From assembly GCA_016235545.1 (NCBI GenBank), contig JACRKB010000128.1, positions 580 through 64,579 on the forward strand: a DNA stretch of 64,000 bases. Reading direction: 5' to 3'. The DNA is from Verrucomicrobiota bacterium (GTDB taxonomy: Bacteria > Verrucomicrobiota > Verrucomicrobiia > Limisphaerales > SXTU01). The notes beneath the pieces are model-generated. The model had not been told where the DNA came from, did no database searches, and worked only from the letters and a program-made list of their open reading frames with translations. This document shows, in pieces, positions 10,187 to 26,828 of this stretch (positions are counted from its first letter, which is position 1; every line of letters starts with the position of its first letter). The translations under genes were made by a program, and so were the position numbers.

Positions 10187-11470
10187 TCACCCTCCCAGCT
10201 CAAATCCCGGTATCGTCCCGCTGCCGGAGCTGGAGCCAAACGCGTTCACATCCGCGCCGAGGCGACGAAGGAACTGCACGTAAAGATTCGAGAGCGGCGG
10301 GTTCTTCTTCGGGTCGAACGCAAGGTGCTGGCCGTGCCGGAAGCCGCCGCCGGCCACAACGATGGGCATGTTTTTGTTGTCGTGGCTGCTGGCGTTGCCC
10401 AGGTTGCTGCCGAAGAGGACGATGGTGCGGTCGAGCAGAGTGCCACCCTGTTCGAGCGTGCCCTTGAGCTTGGCGAGCAGCTCTCCGAAGAGCTTCATCT
10501 GCTGGAGCTCCACGAGCTTTAACTCCGCAAGCTTGAGCGGATCCTGCCCGTGGTGCGAGAGATTGTGCCAGTCCTGCGTGACGCCAGCGATGACGGGCAC
10601 GGCGTTGAGGCCGTTCAGCGCGAAGGTGATGAAACGCGTCGAGTCCGTCTGGAGCGCGAGGTGCATCAGGTCAATCATCAGCCGCACGCGCGCGGGCACC
10701 TCGACGGAGCTGGCGATGTCCACCGGCGGCTTGGCGTCCACCTTCGGCTTGGGGCGCCGCGCCCAGTCCTGCGCCTTGACCATGCGCACCTCGACCTCGC
10801 GGACGGAGGTGAAATACTCGTCGAGCTTCTCGCGGTCGGGCTTGCCGAGGCCGCGTTGGAAATCCTTCGCCTCATCGAGCACCGTGTCCATGATGCTCTG
10901 GCCCTGCTTGAGCCGCTGCACCTGGGCGTTCACCTCGTTGACCGTGCCGTTCACGAACATATTGCGAAAGACGCGCGATGGCCGCTCATCCGCTGGAATT
11001 GGCACGCCGCTGCGCGTGAAGGACAAGCCCCGGCTCGACGACGACGCGAGCGTGAGCGAGCCGAACCGCGTGTCCGGCACGAGCTTCTCGATGGCGAACT
11101 GGTCGAGCGAGATGGTGTTCTTGAAATTGTCCGCGCGCGGGTGCGGGGCTGACGTGAGGTAGCACAGCTCGGCGGGATGCCCGCCATCCACCTCGGGATG
11201 CGAGAGGCCGGAGAAAACGGTGAAGTCGCGGCGAAATTCCGCGAGCGGTTCCAGATAAGGTGTCAGCGCGTAGTCCTTTCCCGCCGCCGAGGGAAACAAG
11301 TTCGGCGTGTGCAGCCCCAGCGTGGTGTTGATGCAAATCAGGCGGCGCGGCGGGGCGGCAGCCTGCGCGCGCAACGGCGTCATGGCCTCGAGCAACGGCA
11401 GCGCGAGCGTGACGCCGGCGCCGCGCAGGAAAGTGCGGCGGGAGAATGTGGCTTGGCGGTTGGTGTTCAT
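10187..11470 (-). CDS. DUF1501 domain protein (sulfatase-fold, Tat-signal)
   Basis: The track ORF is over-extended. The internal ATG at 11470 gives MNTNRQATFSRRTFLRGAGVTLALPLLEAM (twin-arginine signal), followed by conserved DUF1501-type blocks (GGHP..., SEFGR-like region, NHDN...). 428 aa. Confidence 0.8.
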   Translation of the reverse strand: MNTNRQATFSRRTFLRGAGVTLALPLLEAMTPLRAQAAAPPRRLICINTTLGLHTPNLFPSAAGKDYALTPYLEPLAEFRRDFTVFSGLSHPEVDGGHPAELCYLTSAPHPRADNFKNTISLDQFAIEKLVPDTRFGSLTLASSSSRGLSFTRSGVPIPADERPSRVFRNMFVNGTVNEVNAQVQRLKQGQSIMDTVLDEAKDFQRGLGKPDREKLDEYFTSVREVEVRMVKAQDWARRPKPKVDAKPPVDIASSVEVPARVRLMIDLMHLALQTDSTRFITFALNGLNAVPVIAGVTQDWHNLSHHGQDPLKLAELKLVELQQMKLFGELLAKLKGTLEQGGTLLDRTIVLFGSNLGNASSHDNKNMPIVVAGGGFRHGQHLAFDPKKNPPLSNLYVQFLRRLGADVNAFGSSSGSGTIPGFELGG

Positions 11471-11618
11471 GACAGGCTCAGGCGACCAGCGGACAATCAG
11501 ACGCGGAGACGGGGAGCGGTTAGTCATGCGCATTCGCGTGCGGCGGCTGCGGGCCGAAGGAACTCGCAAGCTACTTGCCCATGCCCGCCCGCGGGAGGAA
11601 GTCATGTCCAAACATGGC

Positions 11619-11753
11619 GGGCGCATCTTGACACTGCCCCCGGAGCGCCGGTCTCCGACCCGGCGGGTGGTGCAAAGCACCCGGAAACGCGCCGGATCGG
11701 AGATCGGCGCACCGCAATGCCAGTCAAGTCGGGGGCAGTGTCAAGATGCGCCC
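11619..11753. mobile_element. MITE-like 135-bp element with perfect 23-bp terminal inverted repeats and 9-bp target-site duplication
   Basis: The left end GGGCGCATCTTGACACTGCCCCC (11619-11641) is the exact reverse complement of the right end GGGGGCAGTGTCAAGATGCGCCC (11731-11753). Identical AAACATGGC copies flank it at 11610-11618 and 11754-11762. The interior is itself partly palindromic. Confidence 0.75.
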
Positions 11754-12750
11754 AAACATGGCTGGACGCGAGATTTCAACTTGGTCCGACGAGCGGACTG
11801 CGGGTAGGCTCCCTGCGCTCGTGGCTTCGACATTGGACAATCTCCCGCCGCACCGACATCGCGTCTATGGTCTGACTGTCGCGACATGGATTCCCTTTCC
11901 CGAATTGGAACCCGCGCCCGCCGACGCACCGGTGGACGCCGTCTTCCGCCTCGGCGAGGTGCCGACGGAACTGGCATCACCTCAGTTCTCGGGGGCGTGC
12001 TTCCAAACCGCGCCGGACAGCCTCTTGATGTGGGTGACAGAAGGTGCGCACTACCTGGTCAGGGCTGGGCGGGAAATCATCGTCCAACCCAAGCCTGGTG
12101 CTCCTCTGGATGCGGTGCGTGTTCTGTTGCTCTGCTGGCCTATGGGTGCGCTTTTGCTGCAACGAAGACTGCTGCCCCTCCACGCCAGTGTAATAGCCGC
12201 GCCGCGTGGGGCGGTTGCGTTCTTGGGAGCGTCCCGGGCCGGCAAGTCCACGCTCGCGGCTCATTTTCGAAAGGCCGGCTTTCGGGTGCTCTCCGACGAC
12301 ATCGCCGTGGTTCACTTTGCTCCCGATGGCCGGCCTTGGATTGCACCCGGGTATCCCCAATTCAAGTTATGGCCTGAGGTGGCAGAAAAACTCGGGGAGG
12401 ACGCCAGACGAATGCCGAATCTCTGGCCGAGCCAGCCCAAACGGTCGCTTTCGTTTCGGAGCGAGTTTCACTCCACAAGCCTCCCAATCGCCCGGCTCTA
12501 CGTCCTGGAACCCGTGGCTACAGATGAAGTTCAGTTGAGCCGGCTAGCTCCTTTCGAGAGCATCCGTTGCCTGGCCGAGCACACGTATCGCGCTCAATTT
12601 GTCCCGGGGTTGGGCTTGCAGAGCAGCCATTTCCAGTCCATCGCACGCTTAGCGGACGCAGTGCCCCTCACACGCGTCAGGCGTCCTGCACAAGGATTCC
12701 AACCGGAGAAGCTCACTTCAGTGCTGGCAGCAGACTTTGGGATGCCCTGA
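11746..12750 (+). CDS. HPr-kinase-like serine/threonine kinase of lasso-peptide clusters (precursor C-terminal kinase type)
   Basis: P-loop LHASVIAAPRGAVAFLGASRAGKSTLAAHF followed by VLSDDIAVV resembles the HprK C-terminal domain. It lies immediately upstream of B1/B2 genes. The ATG at 11746 is inside the MITE end, so the native start is probably ATG 11758 (MAGRE...). Confidence 0.75.
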   Translation: MRPNMAGREISTWSDERTAGRLPALVASTLDNLPPHRHRVYGLTVATWIPFPELEPAPADAPVDAVFRLGEVPTELASPQFSGACFQTAPDSLLMWVTEGAHYLVRAGREIIVQPKPGAPLDAVRVLLLCWPMGALLLQRRLLPLHASVIAAPRGAVAFLGASRAGKSTLAAHFRKAGFRVLSDDIAVVHFAPDGRPWIAPGYPQFKLWPEVAEKLGEDARRMPNLWPSQPKRSLSFRSEFHSTSLPIARLYVLEPVATDEVQLSRLAPFESIRCLAEHTYRAQFVPGLGLQSSHFQSIARLADAVPLTRVRRPAQGFQPEKLTSVLAADFGMP

Positions 12751-12861
12751 AAGTCTGAGGTAAGTTCAATCTTTCACTGCTCTTGGCCTTGTGTTTTAGT
12801 GTGCCCAGTCAGCTCAATCTGGGGCCAAGGCAGCCATGCCCTGCTCCAAGCCAGCAAAACC

Positions 12862-13167
12862 ATGCCACAGACGTTTTTGAACTTGGACTCGCGGGTCGCC
12901 CGGTCGACGGACTTGATCAGCAGTTCGGTGAGCGGCCAGACAGCCTTGATGAGCATCGCCAACGGGGCTTACTACGGGCTGGACCCAGTGGGCAGCCGCA
13001 TTTGGGAACTGATTGCAGAGCGTCGTCGGGTCGGGGCGATCTGCGAACAACTACTTGCAGAATTCGCCGTTGACCGGGCCAAGTGCGAAACTCAGGTGCT
13101 TGCATTCCTCCACCGACTGGCCAATGACGGGCTTCTGAGTGTGAGCCATGAGCAGCCGCGTGCTTAA
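12862..13167 (+). CDS. Lasso peptide biosynthesis PqqD-family chaperone (B1 / RiPP recognition element)
   Basis: Taking ATG 12862 gives 101 aa. The sequence LMSIANGAYYGLDPVGSRIWELIAERRRVGAICEQLLAEFAVDRAKCETQVLAFLHRLANDGLL is a typical PqqD/RRE pattern. Its 3' end overlaps the B2 start by 20 nt. Confidence 0.8.
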   Translation: MPQTFLNLDSRVARSTDLISSSVSGQTALMSIANGAYYGLDPVGSRIWELIAERRRVGAICEQLLAEFAVDRAKCETQVLAFLHRLANDGLLSVSHEQPRA

Positions 13168-13591
13168 GCTTGGGCGATGCAACTGGAGCGACCAAGCGCT
13201 GCTGATGGAGGCGGTGGCTTGGCTCTGCGGTGCCCGGCTCCTGCTCCTGCTCCTGCCATTTCGCTGGCTGGCCCCAAGGCTGGGCCAGGCGATGAGCGAA
13301 AGTCCGGCCCAGATAACCGAGCCTGAGCGCAAACTCGCCCTGCGGGTTTCATGGGCCGTCCAAGCAGTCGCCAGGAATCTCCCCCTCGGTTTTGTGTGTC
13401 TGCCCCAGGCGATCGCGGCCAAGTGGATGCTACAGCGGCGGCAACTCGCCACCACGCTCTACCTCGGAGTGGGCCGACCGGAGGATGCGGCACTCACCGC
13501 TCACGCTTGGTTGCGTGCCGGGGACAACATTCTCACCGGACGGGAAGCGAGCCTCCAGCACACAACCATCGCGTGGTTCGGCGACAAGTGA
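13148..13591 (+). CDS. Lasso peptide biosynthesis B2 protein (transglutaminase-like leader peptidase)
   Basis: 147 aa. The sequence FVCLPQAIAAKWMLQRRQLATTLYLGVGR...LTAHAWLRAGDNILTG matches the McjB-C / Transglut_core3 pattern, with a catalytic Cys and the His of AHAW. Confidence 0.85.
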   Translation: MSSRVLKLGRCNWSDQALLMEAVAWLCGARLLLLLLPFRWLAPRLGQAMSESPAQITEPERKLALRVSWAVQAVARNLPLGFVCLPQAIAAKWMLQRRQLATTLYLGVGRPEDAALTAHAWLRAGDNILTGREASLQHTTIAWFGDK

Positions 13592-13739
13592 TGCCATTGT
13601 TCACAAATGCGGTTGGCGGACGGGGGTAGCTGGTGGCGATTCAACCCTTCCCCGCCTCCACAAATAGATAAAAAATGCTTGCGCCAGCCATCGAAATCCA
13701 AGACAACGGAGACCGGTTTTTGAATCAACTAATCAATTT

Positions 13740-13880
13740 ATGAAAAACGACACCGAAACGCAGGACTCACAGCTCGAAAAGAAACAGTGGAACGAGCCGA
13801 CCGTCACCGAACTTTCCATCAACTTTGACACCCTTATCGGCTTAAACGCAGCCGTTGACGGTCTTAACACCAACACCTGA
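13740..13880 (+). CDS. Candidate lasso peptide precursor (46 aa), not in the ORF track
   Basis: ATG 13740 to TGA 13878-13880 translates to MKNDTETQDSQLEKKQWNEPTVTELSINFDTLIGLNAAVDGLNTNT. The leader has a WxxP motif and a Thr at -2 if cleaved after TL. The putative core IGLNAAVDGLNTNT has Asp8. The ORF lies in a locally AT-rich stretch, directly after B2 and directly before a strong terminator. Confidence 0.6.
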   Translation: MKNDTETQDSQLEKKQWNEPTVTELSINFDTLIGLNAAVDGLNTNT

Positions 13881-13904
13881 AGTTCAGGTCGAAAAGCTTC
13901 TTCC

Positions 13905-13942
13905 CGCCACGCTTGGGCTTTTCCAAGCGTGGCGTTTTCTTT
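13905..13942 (+). terminator. Rho-independent terminator after the precursor ORF (possibly bidirectional)
   Basis: A perfect 12-bp stem, cgccacgcttgg (13905-13916) against ccaagcgtggcg (13923-13934), has loop gctttt and is followed by ttttcttt (13935-13942). It sits between the convergent precursor and cyclase genes. Confidence 0.8.
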
Positions 13943-13983
13943 GAGTTGCGAAGCAATGCGCCGCAGAAAATCCTGCTCCCAAA

Positions 13984-15936
13984 TCATCTCGACCAAGGCA
14001 AGGGCCGTTCAATTTCGGGGCTGTCAAAGCGAAGGAGAAACATCCCCACCATCGTCCCGCGGGTGATCAGAGTCACGCACTCCATCGTGTTTTGCGCATT
14101 GATTCCGTATTGGAGTGAGTCAAGCACCCGCCGCAGGTGAGGCACGTCAACTGCCTCGTTCGCCAACGCAGAGCGTTCCATCCGCTCAAAAACCTCCCGT
14201 AACTCGTGAGCGGAAGCTCGAATCCGATAGCCGATATCCATCGCCTGCTTGCCGCGCTTGGGATTGAGGCGAACGGCGTCCGGGAGCAATCCATCCATCG
14301 CGCGCCTGAGCAACCATCGGGTTTGACCCCGGTGATAGAATTGGCTGTTGGGCACCCGCAGACAAAACTCAATCAACTCGGGGTCCATTGTCGGATCGCG
14401 CACGTCCAGGCCATAGGCGGCACCCAGTTCGGCCCAGCCACAGCCCACCGGGTTCTCCGCCAAGTTCATGACCGCCAGGCGTTCTTGATGCGGGTCCGAG
14501 AAGGAGAAGCTGGGGTTGTGTCCCGTGTCCTGCATCCGCTCGCGCAGATTCAATCCACGGGCAAACTCAGTCCGAATCGCCGAGTAGTTCAACCACGGTT
14601 CCTGCCAGTTCCCTTTTCGTTGCCGCCAACTCTCTCTGAGCGGTAGCAGGGCCGGCCGCAGCAGATGCCGACGGAAGACCATCGCGGCGGTGGGCTGCAG
14701 CTTTCTGGCGCGACCCCACAGGCCCCGCCAGCGCCCGTGCAGCAGGTCGGGCCACAAGCTCTCTGGCCAGCCAGTCCAGGAAACGCCGCCGTTGCCGAAC
14801 TGGCCCGTCAACAAAACACCGATCCCCCGTGCCCTCGCTTGTTCGAGCATGTCCACGATCCAAAAATGATTCACCGCCCCGTGCCCGGGTTCATCGCAAA
14901 TCTCCAAAACTCGTGCGAAGCCCGCCAGCGGAGAAATGCGCTCACCTCGGACATACTGCACATCCAGATTTCCGAAGTGAGCGCGGTTGGCCTCCACCAA
15001 CGGCTGCTCGTCGAAGAACAAGCCGGGCAGCTCAAACTCGATCTTGTGTAGCGGCACTGAGCAAAACGCCGCCAGTCGGCGTCCCTCGGCACGAAGCTCC
15101 CGTGCCGCCAGGGCGCAAACCGAACCGGAATCAAGCCCTCCGCTCAACGTGCCGCCCACCGCCCGCCCGCCGCGCATCCGCACCCGCACGGCGCGCGTGA
15201 ACTGTTCCCGGAACGCCTCGACGTATTCATCGTCGGACTTGAGCTCCAATGGAGCCAAAGTCTCGGGAAACCAATACCGCCGCTTCCTCATCTGGCCGCC
15301 CGCGCAAATGGTGAGGGTGTGTCCCGGTTCCAGTCGCACGATGCCTTCATACCCGCACAAATTGCCCCGGCCACTCCACGCTGTCAGCACTTGCGCAACG
15401 CGCAAGAGGTTTGGACGGCGCGGCATTTCTGGCACGGCCAGCAGGGCCTTGACACAGGAGGCGAACGCAAACCACCGCGGATTCGCGTGATAATAGAGGG
15501 AACTCACTCCGCACGGGCATTGGGCCAGGAACAAGCGGCGCTCGCGGGACTCCCAGATGGCGAACGCGAAATCACCGCGGAGGTGGAGCACGCAATCCTC
15601 ACCCCACTTCTGGAAGGCTCGCAGAATCAGCTCACCATCCCGCACGGCGGTGTGATTGTTCCCAGCAAGTGCGAGCTGGGTGGCCAGTTCCTCCCGGTTG
15701 TCCAAGCGAGCGGCCGCCGTGATGATCAGCCCGCCGTCTGAATCACGCAGGGGCAGCTGCTCCTGCAAACTTTCATGCGTGGCGTGCCGCAATAAATGCC
15801 CAAGCCCCACGTTGCCATCGTGCCAGAGGCCGGCACCGTCCGGCCCCCAGTAGGCCATCGCCCCGCGCATCCCTTCGAGGGCGCTGCGATCCACGGGCCT
15901 TCCATCCAGGGAGAAATAGCCGTAAATGCCACTCAT
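13984..15936 (-). CDS. Lasso peptide cyclase (asparagine synthetase-like, C protein)
   Basis: The track ORF is trimmed to ATG 15936 (MSGIYGYFSLDG...), giving 650 aa. It has the AsnB fold with PP-loop TLSGGLDSGSVCALA, but the N-terminal nucleophile Cys is replaced (MSGI instead of MCGI), as expected for lasso cyclases. It is convergent with B1/B2/A. Confidence 0.8.
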   Translation of the reverse strand: MSGIYGYFSLDGRPVDRSALEGMRGAMAYWGPDGAGLWHDGNVGLGHLLRHATHESLQEQLPLRDSDGGLIITAAARLDNREELATQLALAGNNHTAVRDGELILRAFQKWGEDCVLHLRGDFAFAIWESRERRLFLAQCPCGVSSLYYHANPRWFAFASCVKALLAVPEMPRRPNLLRVAQVLTAWSGRGNLCGYEGIVRLEPGHTLTICAGGQMRKRRYWFPETLAPLELKSDDEYVEAFREQFTRAVRVRMRGGRAVGGTLSGGLDSGSVCALAARELRAEGRRLAAFCSVPLHKIEFELPGLFFDEQPLVEANRAHFGNLDVQYVRGERISPLAGFARVLEICDEPGHGAVNHFWIVDMLEQARARGIGVLLTGQFGNGGVSWTGWPESLWPDLLHGRWRGLWGRARKLQPTAAMVFRRHLLRPALLPLRESWRQRKGNWQEPWLNYSAIRTEFARGLNLRERMQDTGHNPSFSFSDPHQERLAVMNLAENPVGCGWAELGAAYGLDVRDPTMDPELIEFCLRVPNSQFYHRGQTRWLLRRAMDGLLPDAVRLNPKRGKQAMDIGYRIRASAHELREVFERMERSALANEAVDVPHLRRVLDSLQYGINAQNTMECVTLITRGTMVGMFLLRFDSPEIERPLPWSR

Positions 15937-16053
15937 ACGATTCGTTTCAACGAAAGGGTCGGCGGCGGTCCTTGGACTCGATACCTGCCTGATCAAACCA
16001 CCGCGCGCGCTTTGTCATAGAGTGCAGCATAGCTAAGGACTACGGCGACAAGT

Positions 16054-17109
16054 TTATGGGGTAGAGCCGCGGGAATTGGAGTTGATCGTCGGCGAAAGCT
16101 GAGGTTCAAGCTGTCGGGCAAATTCCTCGGCAATCACGCGATTCACCCAAGGCCGCAGATGCCCGCCTGAATGCGGATTGTGCAGGGGCAGCTCCGGAAT
16201 CGAGGCGCGCGTGGACTCGACTGCTGGCCACCAGTCTGCGAACGCCACAGAATTGCTGGCCGCCCACGACTTGAGCCAGTCATACGAATGCGAGGGCGCG
16301 GCGGCCCAACCGACCACCAGAGTTGTGTTCGTGGCACGGCACTGCACCTTTAACCGTTCGAATACGCTCCGCTGCTGCTCTGCCACGGAAGGGCCGGAGC
16401 GCACACCGGCAGGCACCGAGGACGTGGGCGGTCGTTTCACCGCCACTCGGAGACGCTTGCCAATCTCCGTCTCTGCCGCCCAGCGCGCGAGCGGCAACGT
16501 CGCGCCCCAGCGCGGGCTGCCATCCACCAGATGCCGGTGTCGGTCGCCGCGCAGGAACATGGCGTCATCGCTTCCGTCGTTCTCCGCACCGAGATAGAGC
16601 ACCACGTCGGGCCGGCCCAGCTTCTCGATGAAGCGGCGCAGGATGAGCAGCGACTGCTCGCCGCCGTTCGCGGCTAGGCCGAGGTTGATCACCGCCACGC
16701 GTCTCTCGTAACGGCCAGCGGCGTCGCGGTTCAGCAAGAGATCGAGTTGAAAGGGATATACCGCGTCCGCCGGCAGGCCCGTGCCCTGCGTGTAGGAATC
16801 TCCGAGCGCGAACAGGCGGGCGCGGTAGCCAGAGAAATCCTCCTGAAAGTTGACTGTGCCCAACCGGTTGACACGCAGCTCCTGCTGGTGGTCGGTGGTC
16901 CGCAGTGCATGAACGCCCGGCTTTGCGCGGACGCCCAGTTCGGCATCGAACTCGTAGGCCCTCGGAAAGCCGACCAAGTGCATGGGCGCAAACAGCCGCA
17001 GCGCTACTTCGCCGGCCACGAGCATCAGCCCACAAGTAGCCGTCGCCAATGCCAGCCGCGCGAGTGGGCGATGTGAGCGAGCTGGATAGTTGATGTGGGT
17101 CGGAGTCAT
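16054..17109 (-). CDS. SGNH/GDSL-type hydrolase family protein with N-terminal TM anchor
   Basis: 351 aa with an N-terminal hydrophobic segment, the block I-like LFALGDSYTQGTG, the block III-like YLGAENDGSDD and a C-terminal HSGGH region. It lies between the nucleotidyltransferase and the cyclase. Confidence 0.6.
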   Translation of the reverse strand: MTPTHINYPARSHRPLARLALATATCGLMLVAGEVALRLFAPMHLVGFPRAYEFDAELGVRAKPGVHALRTTDHQQELRVNRLGTVNFQEDFSGYRARLFALGDSYTQGTGLPADAVYPFQLDLLLNRDAAGRYERRVAVINLGLAANGGEQSLLILRRFIEKLGRPDVVLYLGAENDGSDDAMFLRGDRHRHLVDGSPRWGATLPLARWAAETEIGKRLRVAVKRPPTSSVPAGVRSGPSVAEQQRSVFERLKVQCRATNTTLVVGWAAAPSHSYDWLKSWAASNSVAFADWWPAVESTRASIPELPLHNPHSGGHLRPWVNRVIAEEFARQLEPQLSPTINSNSRGSTP

Positions 17110-17118
17110 CGTCAGACG

Positions 17119-18309
17119 CTAGCCGCGGCGCATGCGCCGGCGCAACCACAGCAGCGGCGCGGCCGGGTAGTAGAGCGCGAACAACCGGTCCGGCAACCGC
17201 AGCATCTTCCAGTTGGCTGGCGACATGAGGCGAGGCCGCAGCACGGCGGCCTTTGCAGACCAGTCGCCACGCAACCGCAGTTGATAGCGGGTCTGCCGCA
17301 GCAGTTCCCGCAGGCCCGGCTGGTCCGCCTCAGCCCGGTTCATGCGCCGCAGTGCAGAGTTGACGAGCCAGCTCACCCGTGACGCATGCACCGTTGGCAC
17401 GTTCACCCGTTCCGGCACCGTGACGCCAAACAGCACTTCCACCAGCCGCGCACCTTGCCAGACGGACGCTTCCACGCCGGACGCCCGAGCCATCCTCATC
17501 ACTTGCGGCCAGTCAACCCCGCCGTGGACCAGCAGCCGTGCCAAGTCCACAAGCCAGAACAGGCGGAACCATTCGTGGCCCGCACCGTGGACGAACAGGT
17601 AGAGCGCCTCCGTCTCCGCCGGCAGCCGCGCCAGTTCGACGCCGCCGAGCGCTTCCCGTGTGCCCGACTTCAGCCACTCATTGAAAGCCTGACGCCCCAG
17701 TCCCTCCAGCCGCCACTCGACCTCGATGCGCACGCCGGTCGCGTCGTTGAAATACTCGAACTCGTGCTTGAGCCGCTGGTATTCGCGGCGCTGCCGGGGC
17801 GTCAGTTCGAAGTCTGGCTGTGAACGGCGGCAGCCGGCGGCGAGCAGAGCCTTGTCGGCGTCGCCGAGGCGGGCGGGTGCGATGAGCAAATCCAAGTCGC
17901 CTGCGTGCCGCACACCGACGCCCCCATAGAGCGCTTGCGCCAGCAGCGGACCCTTCACGCTGAGGAAAGGAATGCCCGCGTTCGCGAACAGCCGGGCGAT
18001 GCGCACCAGCTCCGCAGACCGCACCAGCGCGAGCCGCGCCGTGCGCCGGGCAGTTTCCGTGAGTTGCTCCTGCACAGCCGCAGGCAGCGCCGCGCGCACG
18101 TCTCCGGCGAGGTGATGATGCAGATACGCCCCCACGCGATGCCTCGCGACGACGGCACCAAACGCGGTGGCATCAAGTCCGGCTGGCCAGTGAAAGTCCT
18201 CCGCCCCCGCTGTGCCAAGCGCCAAGCGCAGCAGTTGCACCAGCGCCTTCAACTCCGGCGGCCACGCGGCCACGCGAGGGGACAGTTGGGCTGGCAGCGC
18301 GGCGGTCAT
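17119..18309 (-). CDS. Uncharacterised nucleotidyltransferase (NTP_transf_5 / PF14907-like), lasso-cluster associated
   Basis: 396 aa. The sequence FLSVKGPLLAQALYGGVGVRHAGDLDLLIAP matches the family hallmark (KG..LA...Y......R..gDlDLLv). Its ATG overlaps the stop of the upstream ABC gene (ATGA at 18306-18309). Confidence 0.75.
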   Translation of the reverse strand: MTAALPAQLSPRVAAWPPELKALVQLLRLALGTAGAEDFHWPAGLDATAFGAVVARHRVGAYLHHHLAGDVRAALPAAVQEQLTETARRTARLALVRSAELVRIARLFANAGIPFLSVKGPLLAQALYGGVGVRHAGDLDLLIAPARLGDADKALLAAGCRRSQPDFELTPRQRREYQRLKHEFEYFNDATGVRIEVEWRLEGLGRQAFNEWLKSGTREALGGVELARLPAETEALYLFVHGAGHEWFRLFWLVDLARLLVHGGVDWPQVMRMARASGVEASVWQGARLVEVLFGVTVPERVNVPTVHASRVSWLVNSALRRMNRAEADQPGLRELLRQTRYQLRLRGDWSAKAAVLRPRLMSPANWKMLRLPDRLFALYYPAAPLLWLRRRMRRG

Positions 18310-20087
18310 GGCAAGTCCAGCCCAGCCGACATCAACCGGCGGAAGGCGCCTCCCTCGCGACGGGTCAGTTCACCGGGCGCGCCGCTTTCCACCACGCGCC
18401 CGTGTTCGAGCACGATGACTTGGTCGGCATTCTGAACGGTTGAGAGCCGGTGCGCGATGATGACGAGGGTCAGCTCTCCGTGCAGCCGCTCGATGGCCTG
18501 CTGGATAATCTGCTCGTTCACCGTGTCCAGCGCGCTGGTTGCCTCATCGAGCACCAGCAACGTCGGCTGCCGCAGAAGCGCGCGGGCCAGCGCGAGTCGT
18601 TGCCGCTCACCTCCTGAGAGACGCACGCCGCGGTCGCCCACAATGGTTTCCAAGCCCTGCGGCAGTCGGCTTACAAACTCTTCCGCAGCCGCAGCCCGCA
18701 GCGCGGCGACGAGTTCGGCCTCAGTCGCCTCGGGCCGCGCCCAGAGCAGGTTCGCCCGGATGCTTTCGTGAAACAGAAACGTCTCCTGCGGCACATAGCC
18801 CACGCTCGCGCGCCACGCGTGGACGCGCTCGCCCTCCAGCGCCGCATCGTCCACCAGGACGCGTCCGGCGGAGGGGCGCAACAGGCCCAGCAGCAGGTCG
18901 GCGATGGTGCTCTTGCCCGCGCCCGATGGACCGCAGATGGCGGTCATCTGGCGTGCCGGGATTTTGAGGCTCACACCTGCCAGCACTTCCCGCCCCTCGA
19001 CACCGGGATAGCGGAAGGAAACGGTGTCGAAGCAAACTTCGCCAGCAACCGCGACGCGCGCCATCATCGGCGGGGATGCGGCCTCCTGCGCGGCGATGAA
19101 CTGTTCCCGCAGCTGTTCCGCAGCCGTGAACGATGGAATCATGTGCATCACCCGCTGCCAGTTGCTCTGCAGCGCCGCCAGCCGTGGCAGCAACCGCGCG
19201 AAGATGAAGACAAGCAGCAGCAGCTCGGGCGTGCTCAGGCCCGCGTAGCGCACTGCGGCAAAGAGGAACAAACTCAGCACCACCACCGCGCCCAGTTCGT
19301 AGGCCGCGCGAGTCGTGGCATACACGCGCGTTGCGTCGAGGATGTGCGCGACGATGTCTGCCAGCACACGGCGGAAGTGGGCGAGGTGATGCGCCTCGCG
19401 GCCGTGGCTCTTGGCGACCTTGAGGCCGGCGAGATGCTCCGTGATGGCGGCGGCCATGTCCGCGCGGCGTTCCTGGCCTTCTTTGCCGAGATTGTAGGCG
19501 CGGCGTGTGAGCGGGCGCAGCGCCAGAGCCAGCGCCAGGCCGCTGCCCAGCGCCAGCGCGGTCAACACCGGCGAAAGCGCCAGCGCCAGCGACGCCTGCA
19601 CCAGCGCCACGCCCGCGAGGCCCAACCCCGCGAGCAGTTGCTGCGTGCCGAAGCCGACGCGCTGGATTTCATCCGTGAGCACCTGCGTGATGTCCGACGC
19701 CCGCTGCCGCGTGAAGAACAGCCAGTCCGCCCGGACCATCGCCGCATAAAGCTCTTCGCGCAGCCGGCTCGTGAAAGCGGTCTCAATCCCCGCGTTGAGC
19801 AGATCAAGCGTGTGCCGCAGCGCAATCTGCGCGGCCATGAAGGCGATGAAAATGACCAGCGCCACCGGCAGGGTCAGCGGCAGGCCGACCGCCTGCCACA
19901 CGTCCGCAAGTCCCGTCGCCAGCCCGCTGCTCGCGCGCGGTCCGCCAGTGCCGATGAGTTCCAACACCGGCAGCAGCACCACCAGCCCGGCACCCTCCAG
20001 CACGCCCACCACGACCGTGAGCACGACCGAGAGGCCGACGCGGTTGCCGGCGTGGTTCAGGAAGCAGCGGAGGTAAGTGGCAAGCAT
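18306..20087 (-). CDS. ABC transporter permease/ATPase fusion (lasso peptide exporter, McjD-like D protein)
   Basis: Trimmed to ATG 20087 (MLATYLRCF...), giving 593 aa. It has a 6-TM exporter domain, then Walker A GPSGAGKST, the signature LSGGERQRLALARALL and Walker B LLVLDEATSALD. Confidence 0.85.
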   Translation of the reverse strand: MLATYLRCFLNHAGNRVGLSVVLTVVVGVLEGAGLVVLLPVLELIGTGGPRASSGLATGLADVWQAVGLPLTLPVALVIFIAFMAAQIALRHTLDLLNAGIETAFTSRLREELYAAMVRADWLFFTRQRASDITQVLTDEIQRVGFGTQQLLAGLGLAGVALVQASLALALSPVLTALALGSGLALALALRPLTRRAYNLGKEGQERRADMAAAITEHLAGLKVAKSHGREAHHLAHFRRVLADIVAHILDATRVYATTRAAYELGAVVVLSLFLFAAVRYAGLSTPELLLLVFIFARLLPRLAALQSNWQRVMHMIPSFTAAEQLREQFIAAQEAASPPMMARVAVAGEVCFDTVSFRYPGVEGREVLAGVSLKIPARQMTAICGPSGAGKSTIADLLLGLLRPSAGRVLVDDAALEGERVHAWRASVGYVPQETFLFHESIRANLLWARPEATEAELVAALRAAAAEEFVSRLPQGLETIVGDRGVRLSGGERQRLALARALLRQPTLLVLDEATSALDTVNEQIIQQAIERLHGELTLVIIAHRLSTVQNADQVIVLEHGRVVESGAPGELTRREGGAFRRLMSAGLDLP

Positions 20088-20156
20088 GACAGCGCGTCGG
20101 GCTTGGCTTTGCCCGGTATCCTTGGGCGGCTCAAGCAATTTCTCCGGCGCGGGCCG

Positions 20157-20193
20157 GGAGAAAAGCAAACGGCGCTCCGAGATTCGGAGCGCC
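20157..20193 (-). terminator. Rho-independent terminator ending the long glycan gene array
   Basis: A perfect 10-bp stem, ggcgctccga (20171-20180) against tcggagcgcc (20184-20193), has a 3-nt loop. On the minus strand it is followed by GUUUGCUUUUCUC (complement of 20157-20170). It lies 31 nt after the DUF5989 stop codon. Confidence 0.75.
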
Positions 20194-20223
20194 GCGTGCG
20201 CAGGAAGGAACGTCAATGGCAGA

Positions 20224-20421
20224 TCAGAACAGAGTGTAGATGAACGGGGCCGCAGCCGTGCCACCGAGGATGAGCAGCGCGCCGATGGCCAGCAGCGCCA
20301 GCAGCAGCGGGATGAGCCAGAACTTCTTGTTTTCGCCGAGGAAGGCGATGAACTCCTTCACGAGGCCGGGCTGCGCCTGCTCGCCAGCCTTCTCAAAGTC
20401 GTTTGGTTTCTGGTCGCTCAT
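20224..20421 (-). CDS. DUF5989 family small membrane protein (SxtK-like)
   Basis: Real start is ATG 20421, giving 65 aa: MSDQKPNDFEKAGEQAQPGLVKEFIAFLGENKKFWLIPLLLALLAIGALLILGGTAAAPFIYTLF. The KKFWL...APFIYTLF ending is the family hallmark. Confidence 0.8.
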   Translation of the reverse strand: MSDQKPNDFEKAGEQAQPGLVKEFIAFLGENKKFWLIPLLLALLAIGALLILGGTAAAPFIYTLF

Positions 20422-20444
20422 GTCGTGCCTTTCATCGAGGCCAT

Positions 20445-20885
20445 CTAGAACTGACGGTAGTAACGCTTTGCTTCCGGTGCGGGCGGCGCGTCCACCCAAT
20501 AGGTGCTGGCCTGTCGATCCGGAGTCTTGCGGATGGGCTGCCGCCCGCCAAGCCGTTTCAGGAAGCCGATGCCCGTGACCAGCACGTAGAAAATCAGGCC
20601 CAGCAGGACATTGCCAACGACAATCCCGACGCAGCACGCGAGCGCATACCAGACGATGTAAAACGGCCTGGCGATGGCAGGCACCACGTAGAAGAGCGCG
20701 CCAGCCGCCGCGCCGCCGCCGCCGAGTTTCAGCGCGAAGGAAAGATTCCAGCCCTTGCCCGCGAGGAGGCCGGCCAACAGGAAGGCAACCGCGACACACG
20801 GAAACCCGATGACCAAGCTCCGTGCAAACGTGCGGAGCGCCGCCCTGTCCGGGTTCCAGTTAACTTCTTTGAACGGGTTGACCAT
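20445..20885 (-). CDS. SxtJ-like small membrane protein
   Basis: The track start is TTG; ATG 20885 (MVNPFKEV...) gives 146 aa with 3-4 TM helices. It holds the position between a carbamoyltransferase and DUF5989, as in SxtI-J-K type triads. Confidence 0.65.
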   Translation of the reverse strand: MVNPFKEVNWNPDRAALRTFARSLVIGFPCVAVAFLLAGLLAGKGWNLSFALKLGGGGAAAGALFYVVPAIARPFYIVWYALACCVGIVVGNVLLGLIFYVLVTGIGFLKRLGGRQPIRKTPDRQASTYWVDAPPAPEAKRYYRQF

Positions 20886-20890
20886 GTGGC

Positions 20891-22741
20891 TCAATCCAGC
20901 TTGAAACTCTCAATGTATCTTTTCCGTTGACCTTCGTCCTGCTGCGGCTGCTCGGTGCGGCGGAGCACGCAGTTCTCCAGCACCAGCAAGTCCATATCCG
21001 ACGCCCTGAAGCAGCGGTAAGCGTCCTGCGGCGTGCAGACGATCGGCTCGCCCCGGATGTTGAAGCTCGTGTTGATGATGACGCCGCAGCGGGTCTGGCG
21101 TTTGAACTCCTTCATCAGCCGCCAGTAACGCCCGTGCCGCTCCTCGTCCACGGTTTGAATGCGCGCACTCATGTCCACATGGGTGATGGCCGGCAGCGTC
21201 GAGCGTAGGACGTTCACGCGCTTGCGCAGATCGGGGTCTTTCTGCAACTGCCGCTGCTCGGGCGTGAGCGGCAGCCTATGTTTCTTCTTCACGTCGGCCA
21301 CCATCAGCATGTAGGGCGACTCGCGGTCGTGGTCGAAATACTTGGCCACATCCTCGATGAGCACGCACGGAGCGAAGGGGCGGAAGCTCTCGCGGAATTT
21401 GATGCGCACGTTCATCTGCGACTGCATCGCCGGGCTTCGCGGGTCGCCGATGATGCTGCGCGCGCCGAGTGCGCGTGGGCCGAATTCCATACGTCCGCTG
21501 AACCAGCCGACCACTTTCTCCGAGGCCATTTCCTTCGCGACAGCTTCCAGCAACTCCGGCTCCTGCTCGTAAAACGTGTAGCGAACTTGCTGGCCGTCGA
21601 GGAAAGCGCGGATTTCCTCGTTCGAGAATTTCGGACCGAGCAGCGAGCCTTTGAGCGAGTCTTTCCGCGAAGCCGTGTGCGTGCGCGGCTGGTCGAGCAA
21701 CTGGTGTTGCACAAAGAGCGCCGCGCCCAGCGCACCGCCCGCATCGCCCGACGCGGGCGTGACAAACACGTCCTCGAAGATTCCAGCGCGGAGCAACCTG
21801 CCATTTGCGACGCAATTGAGCGCGACGCCGCCTGCGAGGCAGAGATTCTTGCTGCCGGTAAGCTCCTTCGCATGCCGGGCCATGCGCAGGACAATCTCCT
21901 CCGTGACCTTTTGAATCGAGGCTGCGATGTCCATCTCGCGCTGCGTGATGGCGGACTCGACGCTGCGTGCGGGGCCGCCGAAGAGCGACGCGAACTTGGC
22001 GTTCGTCATTGTCAGCCCCTGGCAGAAGTTGAAGTAGCTCATGTCCATCGCGAGCGAGCCGTCGGGCTTCACGTCCACGAGATGCTTGAGAATGGTGTCC
22101 ACGTATCGCGGCTCACCGTAGGGCGCGAGGCCCATGAGCTTGTATTCTCCCGAGTTGACCTTGAAGCCGCAGAAGTAGGTCACCGCGCTGTAAAGCAGGC
22201 CGAGCGAGTGTGGGAAGTGAAGCGTTTTGAGGAGTTTGATTTTGTTCCCCTGCCCATGCCCGATGGTCGCGGTGTCCCACTCGCCGACTCCGTCGAGCGT
22301 GAGGATGGCCGCGTCTTCGTAGGCCGACGGAAAAAAGGTGCTGGCCGCATGCGACTCGTGGTGGCCTGTGAACGCGATGCGTTTTCTGTAGCGGCCTCCA
22401 AGAGCGTTCCGAATCTCGCGGGGCAGGTGCAGCTTGGTCTTCAGCCACACCGGCATCGCCATCATGAAGGACTGAAGTCCGGCGGGCGCGAATGCGAGGT
22501 AGGTTTCCAGCAGGCGGTCGAACTTGAGCAGCGGCTTGTCGTAGAAGACGACATGGTCGAGCTGCTCTGGCGTGAGGCCGGCCTCGCGCAGGCAGTAATC
22601 CACGGCGTGCTTCGGAAACTCGGAGTCATGCTTGATGCGCGTGAAGCGTTCCTCCTGCGCGGCGGCGACGATGTCCCCATCCACAACGAGCGCGGCGGCG
22701 CTGTCGTGGTAGTAGGCGGAGATGCCGAGAATGCGGGCCAT
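20891..22741 (-). CDS. Carbamoyltransferase (NodU/CmcH family)
   Basis: 616 aa. The sequence MARILGISAYYHDSAAALVVDGDIVAAAQEERFTRIKHD has the typical N-terminal ASKHA-like fold signature, and a C-terminal YrdC-like carbamoyltransferase domain is present. Confidence 0.9.
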   Translation of the reverse strand: MARILGISAYYHDSAAALVVDGDIVAAAQEERFTRIKHDSEFPKHAVDYCLREAGLTPEQLDHVVFYDKPLLKFDRLLETYLAFAPAGLQSFMMAMPVWLKTKLHLPREIRNALGGRYRKRIAFTGHHESHAASTFFPSAYEDAAILTLDGVGEWDTATIGHGQGNKIKLLKTLHFPHSLGLLYSAVTYFCGFKVNSGEYKLMGLAPYGEPRYVDTILKHLVDVKPDGSLAMDMSYFNFCQGLTMTNAKFASLFGGPARSVESAITQREMDIAASIQKVTEEIVLRMARHAKELTGSKNLCLAGGVALNCVANGRLLRAGIFEDVFVTPASGDAGGALGAALFVQHQLLDQPRTHTASRKDSLKGSLLGPKFSNEEIRAFLDGQQVRYTFYEQEPELLEAVAKEMASEKVVGWFSGRMEFGPRALGARSIIGDPRSPAMQSQMNVRIKFRESFRPFAPCVLIEDVAKYFDHDRESPYMLMVADVKKKHRLPLTPEQRQLQKDPDLRKRVNVLRSTLPAITHVDMSARIQTVDEERHGRYWRLMKEFKRQTRCGVIINTSFNIRGEPIVCTPQDAYRCFRASDMDLLVLENCVLRRTEQPQQDEGQRKRYIESFKLD

Positions 22742-25037: not shown

Positions 25038-26828
25038 TCAGTTCCGTGCGAACTGAGCGTGGATGAACCTCGCCCAGCCGCGCAGGCCGCGCTCGGCTGG
25101 CGTGCTGCTGCTTCCCTCCAGCAGCCAGTCGCGGACGGGGATGAAGAAGCCGGTCTTGGGACGGTTGAGCACGGCGGCTGGCAGCGCGCGGGCGGGACTG
25201 AGGGCGAGCGATTGCTTGCCGGGCGGGTGCGAGCTGGCGATCAGCGGGGCGAGCGTGCGCCACAGGTTCACATCCACAAGCGGCACGCGCACCTCGATGG
25301 AGTGGGCCATGCTCGCCCAGTCCGCGTCGCGCAGGAGCTGGTTGCGCATATACCAGACGGCTTCGAGCGAGGAAACTTTCTGGCGCGGCGTGGGCAGGGT
25401 GGTGTGCGTTTCGTCGAGCCGGAGCAATGGTTGAAGTTCGTTCCATCCTGCGCGCACCAGGTCAGGATCGAGAAGGGCCGGCAGTTCCCACGGCATGAAC
25501 ATGCCGCGCCGCAACAAGTATGCGCCGCCGGGCGTGCCGCCGTATTCCAAAAGGCCGGCGTATTTCGGAGATGTTCGCTGTCGCAGCACCGGCGCGGCCA
25601 CCGCTCGAAACGCGCGACCGAGCCATTGCGCGTGGCGGAACGGCGCGAGCCAGCGCGCGGCGCGCGGCACATCGCGGAAGCTCGGATAGCCGCCGAGCAA
25701 TTCGTCACCGCCCAACCCGGAGAGCGCGACCTTCAGCCCTGCGCGACGCGCGGCGAGGCTGACGAAGTATGTGTTGACGCCGTCAGTGGAGGGCTGGTCC
25801 ATCGCCCGCAGGAGCGCGGCGCGTTCGCCGTGAAAATCCTCCTTCGTCACCCAGATGGTCTGGTGCTCAGCGACGTAGTGGCGCGCGACTTCTTCGGCCA
25901 GCGGCACCTCGTCATTCGCGGTGCCTCGAAACTCGGTGAAGCCCAGCGTCACGGTGCGCAGCCGTCCGCCTTGCTCGGACGCCAGGCCCGCAAGCGCGGT
26001 CGAGTCCAGCCCGGCAGACAGGAACACGCCGACGGGCACATCGGCGATTAGGTGGTGTCGCACCGTGTCGGCGAACGCAGTGCGCACGAAGTCCGGTGCT
26101 TGTGCCATGCCATCTGAACCCGCGGCCACGCGGAGAATATCACCCACGCTCCCGTGGGTTCCGCCGTCCCGCGTGCCGTCCGCGCCTGCCCACAGCCAGC
26201 CCCCCGCCGGGAGCGAGCGGATGCCGCGATACAGCGAATACGGCTCCGGCACATGGCCCCAGAGAAAAAAGCCGACTTGTCCGGCGGGGTCCGGCGCGGT
26301 GTCCACATGTCCGCCGGCAAGCAGGGACTTCACTTGCGATGCAGCGCGCAACGTCCGCCCATCATCCGCGATGTAAAGCGGCTTGATGCCAAAGGTGTCG
26401 CGCGCGAGCAGCAGGCCTTGGCGCTGCGCATCCCACAGCGCGAAGGCGAACATCCCGCGCAACTCGCGCAGCATTTCACGGCCCCGCTCTGCATAAAGGT
26501 GCAGCAGCACCTCCGTGTCGCTGTGGGAGCGGAAGCGCCGTCCGCGCGCCTCCAGCCCTGCGCGCAGCTCGCGGTGGTTGTAAATCTCGCCGTTGAAGAC
26601 AATCACCAGCCGGCCATCCTCGGAACTCATCGGCTGCGCGCCTGCGGTGGAAAGATCGATGATGGACAGGCGGCGGTGCGCCAGTCCCACGCGCCGGTTG
26701 TCGGAAAACCAAAGGCCCGCGCCGTCCGGTCCGCGCGCCGTCATCTGGTCGCGCATCCGCAGCAGCTCAGATTCATCCACCGGCGGAGCGGCGGAGGAAT
26801 GAGCAAAGCAGGCGGCGATGCCACACAT
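25038..26828 (-). CDS. asnB: Asparagine synthase (glutamine-hydrolysing) family amidotransferase
   Basis: 596 aa. The N-terminus MCGIAACF carries the Ntn Cys2, and the PP-loop is VFLSAGLDSTALAGL. It is embedded among glycan genes, so it is likely a sugar-carboxylate amidotransferase (WbpS-like) rather than a housekeeping AsnB. Confidence 0.85.
   Translation of the reverse strand: MCGIAACFAHSSAAPPVDESELLRMRDQMTARGPDGAGLWFSDNRRVGLAHRRLSIIDLSTAGAQPMSSEDGRLVIVFNGEIYNHRELRAGLEARGRRFRSHSDTEVLLHLYAERGREMLRELRGMFAFALWDAQRQGLLLARDTFGIKPLYIADDGRTLRAASQVKSLLAGGHVDTAPDPAGQVGFFLWGHVPEPYSLYRGIRSLPAGGWLWAGADGTRDGGTHGSVGDILRVAAGSDGMAQAPDFVRTAFADTVRHHLIADVPVGVFLSAGLDSTALAGLASEQGGRLRTVTLGFTEFRGTANDEVPLAEEVARHYVAEHQTIWVTKEDFHGERAALLRAMDQPSTDGVNTYFVSLAARRAGLKVALSGLGGDELLGGYPSFRDVPRAARWLAPFRHAQWLGRAFRAVAAPVLRQRTSPKYAGLLEYGGTPGGAYLLRRGMFMPWELPALLDPDLVRAGWNELQPLLRLDETHTTLPTPRQKVSSLEAVWYMRNQLLRDADWASMAHSIEVRVPLVDVNLWRTLAPLIASSHPPGKQSLALSPARALPAAVLNRPKTGFFIPVRDWLLEGSSSTPAERGLRGWARFIHAQFARN

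Follow-up and report, generated by a model that had tools for sequence, protein, structure and literature searches.

Gene content of the lasso peptide cluster

The stretch of DNA analysed here, 64,000 nucleotides of contig JACRKB010000128.1 from a Verrucomicrobiota bacterium and referred to below as the window, contains a complete lasso peptide cluster with split B proteins, as seen from the listing of its open reading frames (ORFs) and from profile searches. The cluster is of class II and of the kinase plus nucleotidyltransferase type, and it belongs with the phosphorylated lasso systems represented by paeninodin, pseudomycoidin and Bsf; in addition, it encodes a membrane-anchored protein of SGNH-like fold. 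The genes form two convergent operons, K-B1-B2-A on the plus strand and D-N-SGNH-C on the minus strand. All genes named in the original prediction were found at the coordinates given there; its extent of 11746-18309 holds for these genes but not as an end point, as the cluster continues to the exporter gene D (18306-20087).

The plus-strand operon opens with K, an HPr-kinase-like lasso precursor kinase recognized by an HprK-related profile. Its ORF is open from the ATG at 11746 and runs to 12750; translation is more likely to start at GTG 11821, as the homologs have their first residue about 25 amino acids further on. K is followed by B1, a PqqD-type recognition element (RRE) for peptides made on ribosomes and modified after translation (RiPPs) (12799-13167; PF05402, E 1e-18; lasso_PqqD_Bac, E 8e-22), and by B2, a transglutaminase-like leader peptidase (13148-13591; PF13471, Transglut_core3, E 1e-24; lasso_biosyn_B2, NF033537, E 4e-24 and above the cutoff). 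The last gene is A (13740-13880), which encodes a precursor of 46 amino acids, MKNDTETQDSQLEKKQWNEPTVTELSINFDTLIGLNAAVDGLNTNT, with the C-terminal sequence NTNT. A strong intrinsic terminator, which begins 25 nt past the stop codon of the precursor, closes the operon (13905-13934, plus strand; 13-bp stem with nine G-C pairs, 4-nt loop and T-tract).

On the minus strand, the ATP-binding cassette (ABC) exporter D (18306-20087, likely start ATG 20087, ORF open to 20264), which was identified in the profile searches, is overlapped at its end by 4 nt by N, a nucleotidyltransferase-fold enzyme of the PsmN/BsfN type (17119-18309; PF14907, E 1e-48, with a score of 166 for a cutoff of 31). The gene of the SGNH-fold protein (16054-17109) starts 9 nt past the stop codon of N; its product has an N-terminal transmembrane helix and the residues Ser105 (in a GDS motif), Asn142/Gly144, Asn177 and His317. 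The operon ends with C, an Asn-synthetase-like macrolactam cyclase (13984-15936, ORF to 15996; PF00733 and GATase_7), for which ATG 15936 is a more likely start than 15996. The cyclase profile NF033535 (lass_lactam_cya) matches C with E 4e-121, at a score of 405 that lies below the cutoff of 525.

Kinase K and its catalytic motif

The P-loop region of K matches TIGR04352 (E 7e-8), its more than 441 homologs carry PF27840 and/or PF07475 (Hpr_kinase_C), and the best PDB matches of the K profile are HPr kinase/phosphorylases (E 1e-6). As a reference of known function, the translation of bsfK from the methods section of PMC10368454 was aligned to K of the window by BLASTP, giving 33% identity over the catalytic core of 134 amino acids (E 2e-9). 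The residues essential in BsfK are His148, Gly163, Lys169, Ser170, Asp186 and Asp187 (PMC10368454), and every one of them has its counterpart in K. In the alignment of 35 homologs His146, Gly166-Lys167-Ser168 and Asp184-Asp185 are invariant, and Gly161, which is present in K of the window, is kept in nearly all sequences.

Within the catalytic motif H...G..G.GKS...DD the window kinase deviates once, with Arg164 in place of the middle Gly of the P-loop; this stretch is GASRAGKS in K and in the two homologs nearest to it, against a family consensus of GxSGxGKS. The G166A mutant of BsfK has wild-type activity (PMC10368454), and owing to this full activity of the equivalent mutant Arg164 is considered tolerable. 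The homology to BsfK and the matches to HPr kinase structures agree with the earlier reading of K as an HPr-kinase-like enzyme of lasso clusters, and its catalytic motif is intact.

Precursor, core peptide and acceptor residue

A genome scan with the kinase alignment found 29 loci (loci are numbered L001 and so on), mostly in metagenome-assembled genomes (MAGs) of Limisphaerales and other Verrucomicrobiota, and B1, B2 and C stand beside K in almost all of them. Precursors were found as small ORFs with the leader motif in these loci and in loci added later, which gave 20 kinase-linked precursors with a common leader register. Seventeen of the 20 end in a hydroxyl amino acid: eight in Thr (the window, L001, L002, L008, L010, L028, L030 and L031) and nine in Ser (L004, L016 and L012 with two each for the latter two, L018, L020 with two, and L024). 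The three exceptions end in ...LSL, ...TFSD and ...FGG, and the precursor of L091, which stands outside the set of 20, likewise ends in Thr. A C-terminal Ser acceptor is therefore not a feature of the window precursor, which ends in Thr and fits only the relaxed definition of a C-terminal Ser/Thr.

The leader of the window precursor shows W17xxP20xV22 and, at position -2, T31; D40 is core position 8 when counted from I33 and 7 when counted from G34. Relatives with the canonical Ala or Ser at position 1 have the register W(-16), T(-2) and D8 followed by Gly. Applied to the window, this register places the start of the core at I33, which would give the core IGLNAAVDGLNTNT (13836-13877), an I1-D8 ring and the tail GLNTNT. 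The register used in the literature, Y(-17), would make G34 residue 1 and give a 7-membered ring, with cleavage one residue later and the core GLNAAVDGLNTNT. Orthologous precursors are present in L001 and L091; position 1 is Ile in the window and L001 and Thr in L091, and the following Gly is constant. Whether the core starts at I33 or G34, the six-residue tail is devoid of bulky side chains.

The core IGLNAAVDGLNTNT contains only two hydroxyl residues, T12 and the C-terminal T14, so the three further hydroxyl residues that had been placed near the acceptor reduce to T12. In L001, the nearest relative (K 81% and C 90% identical), the core is IGNGVAADGLMNNT, and the C-terminal Thr is its sole hydroxyl residue. 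Those kinases of the PadeK/ThcoK family that have been characterized modify the Ser at the C-terminus of the linear precursor (PMC9266682), and BsfK takes Thr in place of Ser (PMC10368454). Phosphorylation of Thr46 is the best-supported assignment because 17 of 20 precursors end in Ser or Thr, because the L001 core offers a single hydroxyl, and because Thr is accepted by BsfK; that Thr46 is the phospho-acceptor, as had been predicted, is thus well supported by comparison among precursors and remains the best reading. In the proposed first step, which we regard as probable, B1 would bind the WxxPxV leader and guide K to phosphorylate Thr46 of the linear precursor. B2 would then cut the leader after T(-2)-L(-1) and C would close the I1-D8 isopeptide (or G1-D7), leaving the tail GLNTNT.

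Two characterized groups of systems are close to these steps. The paeninodin, ThcoK and SyanK kinases (Zhu 2016, as summarized in PMC9266682) phosphorylate or polyphosphorylate the linear precursor at its C-terminal residue, ahead of cyclization; in that summary the characterized substrates all end in Ser, in contrast to the window, and the paeninodin cluster is described without N and SGNH. The Bsf cluster of Bradymonas sediminis (PMC10368454) shares with the window the set K, N, B1, B2, C and D, a Gram-negative host and the essential kinase residues, and BsfK accepts Thr, the acceptor predicted for the window. It differs in that the phosphorylated residue is Ser3 inside the ring, the last residue of BsfA is Asp, Ile stands at -2 of the leader where the window family has T(-2), and there is no SGNH gene.

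The PF14907 enzyme N and its expected product

N occurs in 12 of the 29 kinase loci, and all 84 homologs found carry PF14907. One of them (P0314) is a 679-amino-acid fusion of PF14907 with a B2 transglutaminase-like domain, which is an independent tie of N to lasso processing. In the alignment Lys119-Gly120 and Asp138xAsp140 are invariant, the latter with the counterparts Asp134/Asp136 in PsmN. A sequence search of PDB with N returned no match, and a fold search was used in its place: the AlphaFold model (mean predicted local distance difference test score, pLDDT, 92) is nearest to the aminoglycoside nucleotidyltransferase ANT(2'')-Ia (5cfu, 5cfs and 4xje), LnuA and the CDP-ribitol phosphotransferase FKRP. 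Phyre2 gave the same ANT entries (5cfs, 4xje) for PsmN, of which the D134A/D136A mutant is inactive (PMC6993621). From Pfam membership, motifs, fold and gene context, we infer that N belongs with the PsmN family.

The product of PF14907 enzymes was described as unknown in the original prediction, a statement that is out of date. In pseudomycoidin biosynthesis PsmN is required for mass gains of +162 and +324 Da, equal to one or two hexoses, at the C-terminal phosphoserine (Zyubko 2019, PMC6993621), and the hexose is placed on the phosphate because the modified forms resist phosphatase (PMC6993621). By family and fold homology, N would extend the phosphate of the window peptide, most likely in the manner of PsmN by adding one or two hexoses, an assignment to which we give about an even chance. 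By this analogy, the expected product is most likely a phospho-hexose rather than a nucleotide, and a stable AMP or GMP adduct is less likely because PsmN yields a hexose on the phosphate.

Alternatively, N could be a true nucleotidyltransferase that places a nucleoside monophosphate on phosphothreonine or directly on Thr (+329/+345 Da), the hexose of pseudomycoidin being an artefact of the host. The nucleotidyltransferase fold of N, its GS...DxD motif and the aminoglycoside and lincosamide adenylyltransferases at the top of its structural matches speak for this, and both the authors and the reviewers of the pseudomycoidin work allow for a nucleotidylated intermediate on which a host glycosyltransferase acts (PMC6993621, PMC9266682). 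However, the sole experimental product of the family is a hexose-phosphate and no nucleotide adduct was seen (PMC6993621), and the fold matches also include FKRP-type phosphotransferases, which use nucleoside diphosphate-activated donors without leaving the nucleotide behind. Nucleotidylation as the final outcome therefore appears improbable, and hexose addition is preferred.

The pseudomycoidin cluster psmCAKB1B2ND of Bacillus pseudomycoides (PMC6993621) is similar to the window in its HprK-like kinase, PF14907-type NTP transferase, split B1/B2, cyclase C and ABC exporter, and further in the C-terminal hydroxyl residue, the short and poorly plugged tail, the proposal of the modification as a plug, and the N-fold matches 5cfs and 4xje. 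The window differs by a Thr instead of a Ser acceptor, a Gram-negative host of Verrucomicrobia type, two convergent operons, an extra SGNH gene coupled to N and a shorter core of 13-14 amino acids, and the likeness of N to PsmN is seen through fold and motif only. A bulky C-terminal group as a substitute for the steric plug has already been proposed for pseudomycoidin (PMC6993621), and this idea fits the short tails of small residues that are common in the clade of the window. Of the remaining members, BsfN is uncharacterized (PMC10368454). The linear polyphosphorylated peptide (LPP) clusters (PMC13381572) share K, N, an RRE and an exporter with the window, and their authors propose a partner for N; they differ in having neither cyclase nor B2, in a kinase (LppK) that rejects Thr, and in the absence of SGNH.

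The SGNH gene as a partner of N

No SGNH gene was found in any of the 29 kinase loci (0/29). In L001 C follows N after 180 bp, and the indel between the window and L001 is exactly the SGNH ORF. On the other hand, N is the immediate upstream neighbour, on the same strand and inside a lasso cluster, of every SGNH homolog with 73% identity or more (8 of the 8 members of this clade). The pair is present in L030, L031, L037, L038, L039 and L090, where the distance from N to SGNH is 44-146 bp, and in two ENA contigs, where the called genes are 10 bp apart. The 9-nt spacer between N and SGNH is identical in the window and L037. L030 holds a full cluster with the order N-SGNH-178aa-281aa-methyltransferase-A-C-B2-B1-K, flanked by DUF1552, and SGNH stands beside N despite the different flanks.

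The identity matrix of N places the window outside a group in which clusters with SGNH (L031, L037) are mixed with clusters lacking it (L001, L091), and N of L001 is 97% identical to N of L037 over the shared part. Between N and C, L001 and L091 have homologous spacers, in which about 25 nt resembling the N stop and first SGNH codons are retained; when the L001 spacer was first aligned globally with the SGNH gene, the result was only noise and was discarded. Based on the relationships of N, the seven other N-SGNH contigs and the homologous remnant spacers, an ancestral N-SGNH pair with a single loss, in the nearest relatives L001/L091, would be parsimonious. The same three lines of evidence led us to reject a recent random insertion of the SGNH gene. 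An SGNH gene is indeed unusual in lasso clusters in general, as had been noted, but it is not a stray insertion here: within a Verrucomicrobia-type subclade its pairing with N is conserved. Since L001 and L091 have lost SGNH and kept everything else, it is best described as an accessory partner, conserved yet dispensable.

Properties of the SGNH protein

The Pfam family PF13472 matches the SGNH protein with a score of 27.5, below the gathering threshold of 32.9, and a sequence search of PDB gave weak esterase matches only, so that a fold search was used in its place. The AlphaFold model (pLDDT 85) comprises an N-terminal helix (15-40) and an SGNH domain, for which SGNH structures were matched at probability 1.0. 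Among 24 aligned homologs Ser105 (GDS), Asn142/Gly144, Gly174 and His317 are invariant and Asn177 is kept in at least 90%. Block V is peculiar: it reads SGGH where DxxH is usual, Ser314 is invariant at the position of the Asp, and His313 and Asn311 are also invariant. The charges around the helix are +3/0 before it and +1/-3 after it, which, by the positive-inside rule, predicts a periplasmic catalytic domain.

Among the structures matched by the model, CgnD ranks first (8a2n, E 4e-6); it is an SGNH hydrolase that removes the RiPP leader in crocagin biosynthesis (PMC10885120). By this likeness the window protein could be a peptide-directed hydrolase that trims or cleaves the exported peptide, or it could serve self-immunity. 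The similarity is, however, limited to a TM-score of 0.44-0.50 with a root mean square deviation above 9 A; the cluster already has a dedicated leader peptidase, B2; and the wider SGNH family is tied to glycan genes. The next structural matches are ordinary carbohydrate and lipid esterases, namely GDSL esterases, 4rw0, acetylxylan and rhamnogalacturonan acetylesterases and the C-terminal domain of OatA. We consider a CgnD-like role very unlikely.

The SGNH carbohydrate O-acyl esterases and transferases (PatB, the C-terminal domain of OatA, acetylxylan and rhamnogalacturonan acetylesterases) share with the window protein the modelled fold, the Ser/Gly/Asn/His blocks and the predicted extracytoplasmic site, and as in their case distant relatives of the window SGNH lie in glycan loci. 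The likeness remains at the level of the fold (TM-score 0.3-0.5), and the window protein differs by the SGGH of block V, by lacking an MBOAT/AT3 partner and by its place inside a RiPP operon. The PatA/PatB and OafB systems need a polytopic acyltransferase partner; no MBOAT or AT3 domain occurs in this cluster or right beside it, and the window also lacks the 281-amino-acid protein with multiple transmembrane segments that follows SGNH in related clusters.

Linkage to N, directly after which the SGNH gene is co-transcribed, and the carbohydrate-esterase character of its family are the basis for a proposed editing step. After export of the product by D, the SGNH protein, anchored with its catalytic domain outside, would remove or transfer a group held on the appended sugar-phosphate by an ester bond. 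This step is doubtful. Acyl transfer by the tailoring genes, which was part of the original prediction, is one possibility.

The wider SGNH family and the neighbouring glycan genes

The SGNH gene could also be unrelated to the peptide, encoding an O-acyl esterase or transferase of envelope glycans that acts with the products of neighbouring carbamoyltransferase and glycosyltransferase genes and is merely carried in the lasso operon. Several observations agree with this. The homologs outside the N subclade, with 31-58% identity, are never found in lasso clusters, and among the approximately 50 homologs of at most 58% identity none is directly downstream of N; L054 alone has an N-like stretch, 31% identical and 2.3 kb away. 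These homologs occur in or near polysaccharide genes: L032 is a Wzx/Wzy/glycosyltransferase locus, and polysaccharide genes lie no more than 8 kb away in L034 and L035. In seven metagenomic loci (L045, L046, L050, L051, L053, L055 and L078) a NodU/CmcH-type carbamoyltransferase gene lies 8-127 bp from a non-lasso SGNH homolog on the same strand, a recurrent adjacency that suggests a functional SGNH-carbamoyltransferase pair. The flanks of the window are likewise glycan genes, comprising two GT4 glycosyltransferases, AsnB, a CapD-like protein, Wzm/Wzt and the trio carbamoyltransferase-SxtJ-DUF5989, and L001 and L091 dropped SGNH with their clusters otherwise unchanged.

The trio (20224-22741, minus strand) lies upstream of D and consists of the NodU/CmcH-type carbamoyltransferase (20891-22741), an SxtJ-like gene (20445-20894) and a DUF5989 gene (20224-20421); it is regarded as a possible accessory module and is also found upstream of D-N in L001, L090 and L091. 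A terminator-like hairpin on the minus strand between the DUF5989 gene and D (20169-20195; 12-bp stem with nine G-C pairs) is the probable border at which the upstream glycan operon gives way to the operon D-N-SGNH-C. This separation counts against an envelope enzyme, as do the consistent position of the clade with at least 73% identity directly after N, the identical spacer shared with L037 and the placement of the gene between N and C rather than at the cluster edge. In L030, moreover, the cluster is flanked by DUF1552/PSCyt1 and no carbamoyltransferase is nearby. A purely envelope-directed function is considered unlikely.

A further reading combines both sets of observations. The SGNH and carbamoyltransferase enzymes would form a glycan-dressing pair recruited to decorate the sugar attached by N, so that a sugar-phosphodiester on Thr is dressed like a surface glycan: the flanking carbamoyltransferase would O-carbamoylate it, the periplasmic SGNH protein would O-acylate or O-deacylate it after export, and the N-SGNH pair would supply the partner required by PF14907 enzymes. 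Against this reading count the loss of SGNH in the sister clusters and the missing acyl-donor partner, and we hold it to be quite unlikely. If true, a glycan-dressed Thr would be a new kind of RiPP tailoring, taken over from the modification of polysaccharides, in which one step lies outside the cytoplasm.

Variation among related clusters

Several other genes accompany these clusters. A module of a 148- or 178-amino-acid transmembrane protein, a 281-amino-acid protein with multiple transmembrane segments and no Pfam match, and a 381-amino-acid methyltransferase resembling protein arginine methyltransferases (PRMT-like) is present in L030 (3904-6448), L031, L038, L004, L012 and L090; it occurs with SGNH in L030, L031, L038 and L090 and without it in L004 and L012. 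The L030-type genes (178 aa, 281 aa and the PRMT-like methyltransferase) were sought in the window, and none was found there. In the closest relatives lacking SGNH, L091 (15503-16723), L092 and L093, a 406-amino-acid JmjC_2/Cupin_8 gene that the window lacks stands between K and DUF1552 and may encode a tailoring hydroxylase. ENA contig ERZ1305449 (10217 bp) has a sulfotransferase gene (PF00685) beside B1 in the usual place of K and retains N-SGNH, which suggests sulfation replacing phosphorylation in that cluster. In L009 (10001-15474, Verrucomicrobiota) two K and two B1 genes in opposite orientation surround one C, an arrangement that looks like a duplicated or tandem kinase-lasso cluster.

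The GC content at third codon positions falls into two classes in the region 10187-22741 of the window: 0.67-0.76 for K, B1, B2, A, C and SGNH, and 0.81-0.87 for D, N, DUF1552 and the carbamoyltransferase trio. Two origins may thus be combined in this cluster as a mosaic, for which this measure is not decisive; C shares no more than 31-33% identity with the L030/L031 cyclases, compared with 74-83% for N and SGNH, which agrees with a mosaic. A further gene of the Asn-synthase family (25038-26828, minus strand) lies among glycosyltransferase genes and is an AsnB-type amidotransferase of the polysaccharide locus, not a second lasso cyclase. The MAG records of L001, L004, L010 and L012 are labelled Klebsiella; given their DUF1552 genes and Limisphaerales synteny, these labels look wrong.

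The proposed pathway and its significance

Taken together, the five steps of phosphorylation, lasso formation, extension by N, export and SGNH editing form a tentative pathway, which in its entirety we place a little below an even chance. A number of points weigh against it. The pathway is predicted from the genes. On the side of the kinase, the related LppK rejects Thr (PMC13381572) and the target of BsfK is Ser3 and not the C-terminus (PMC10368454), so that regiochemistry varies within the family; T12 of the core is an alternative acceptor. The function of N has been shown only in vivo and for one Bacillus homolog, and deletion of lppN was without effect, which led the authors to suggest that N needs a partner (PMC13381572). 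With respect to the SGNH protein, block V has SGGH instead of DxxH, the domain profiles reveal no MBOAT/AT3 acyltransferase partner in the cluster or directly beside it, L001/L091 lost the gene with no other cluster change, and, considering the polysaccharide context of the family and the flanks of the window, the enzyme may serve the cell envelope instead.

The architecture that combines K with N, and its chemistry, are already known. In the literature searched, no prior description was found of a lasso cluster with SGNH, of one with a carbamoyltransferase, or of a kinase lasso cluster from Verrucomicrobia. Relative to that literature, three aspects are new: a clade of Verrucomicrobia type whose precursors end in Thr, a conserved N-SGNH pair for which natural sister clusters without SGNH exist, and the recurrent linkage between SGNH and carbamoyltransferase genes.

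Phosphorylated and phospho-glycosylated lasso peptides have so far come from few Bacillota and Proteobacteria. PsmN has been studied in vivo only and LppN is silent in a heterologous host, and this family of clusters provides a handle on PF14907 function. It supplies natural substrates that end in Thr and, in L001 and L091, controls that lack SGNH. Products of clusters with and without SGNH would bear both on the group added by PF14907 enzymes and on a post-export esterase step in lasso peptide biosynthesis.

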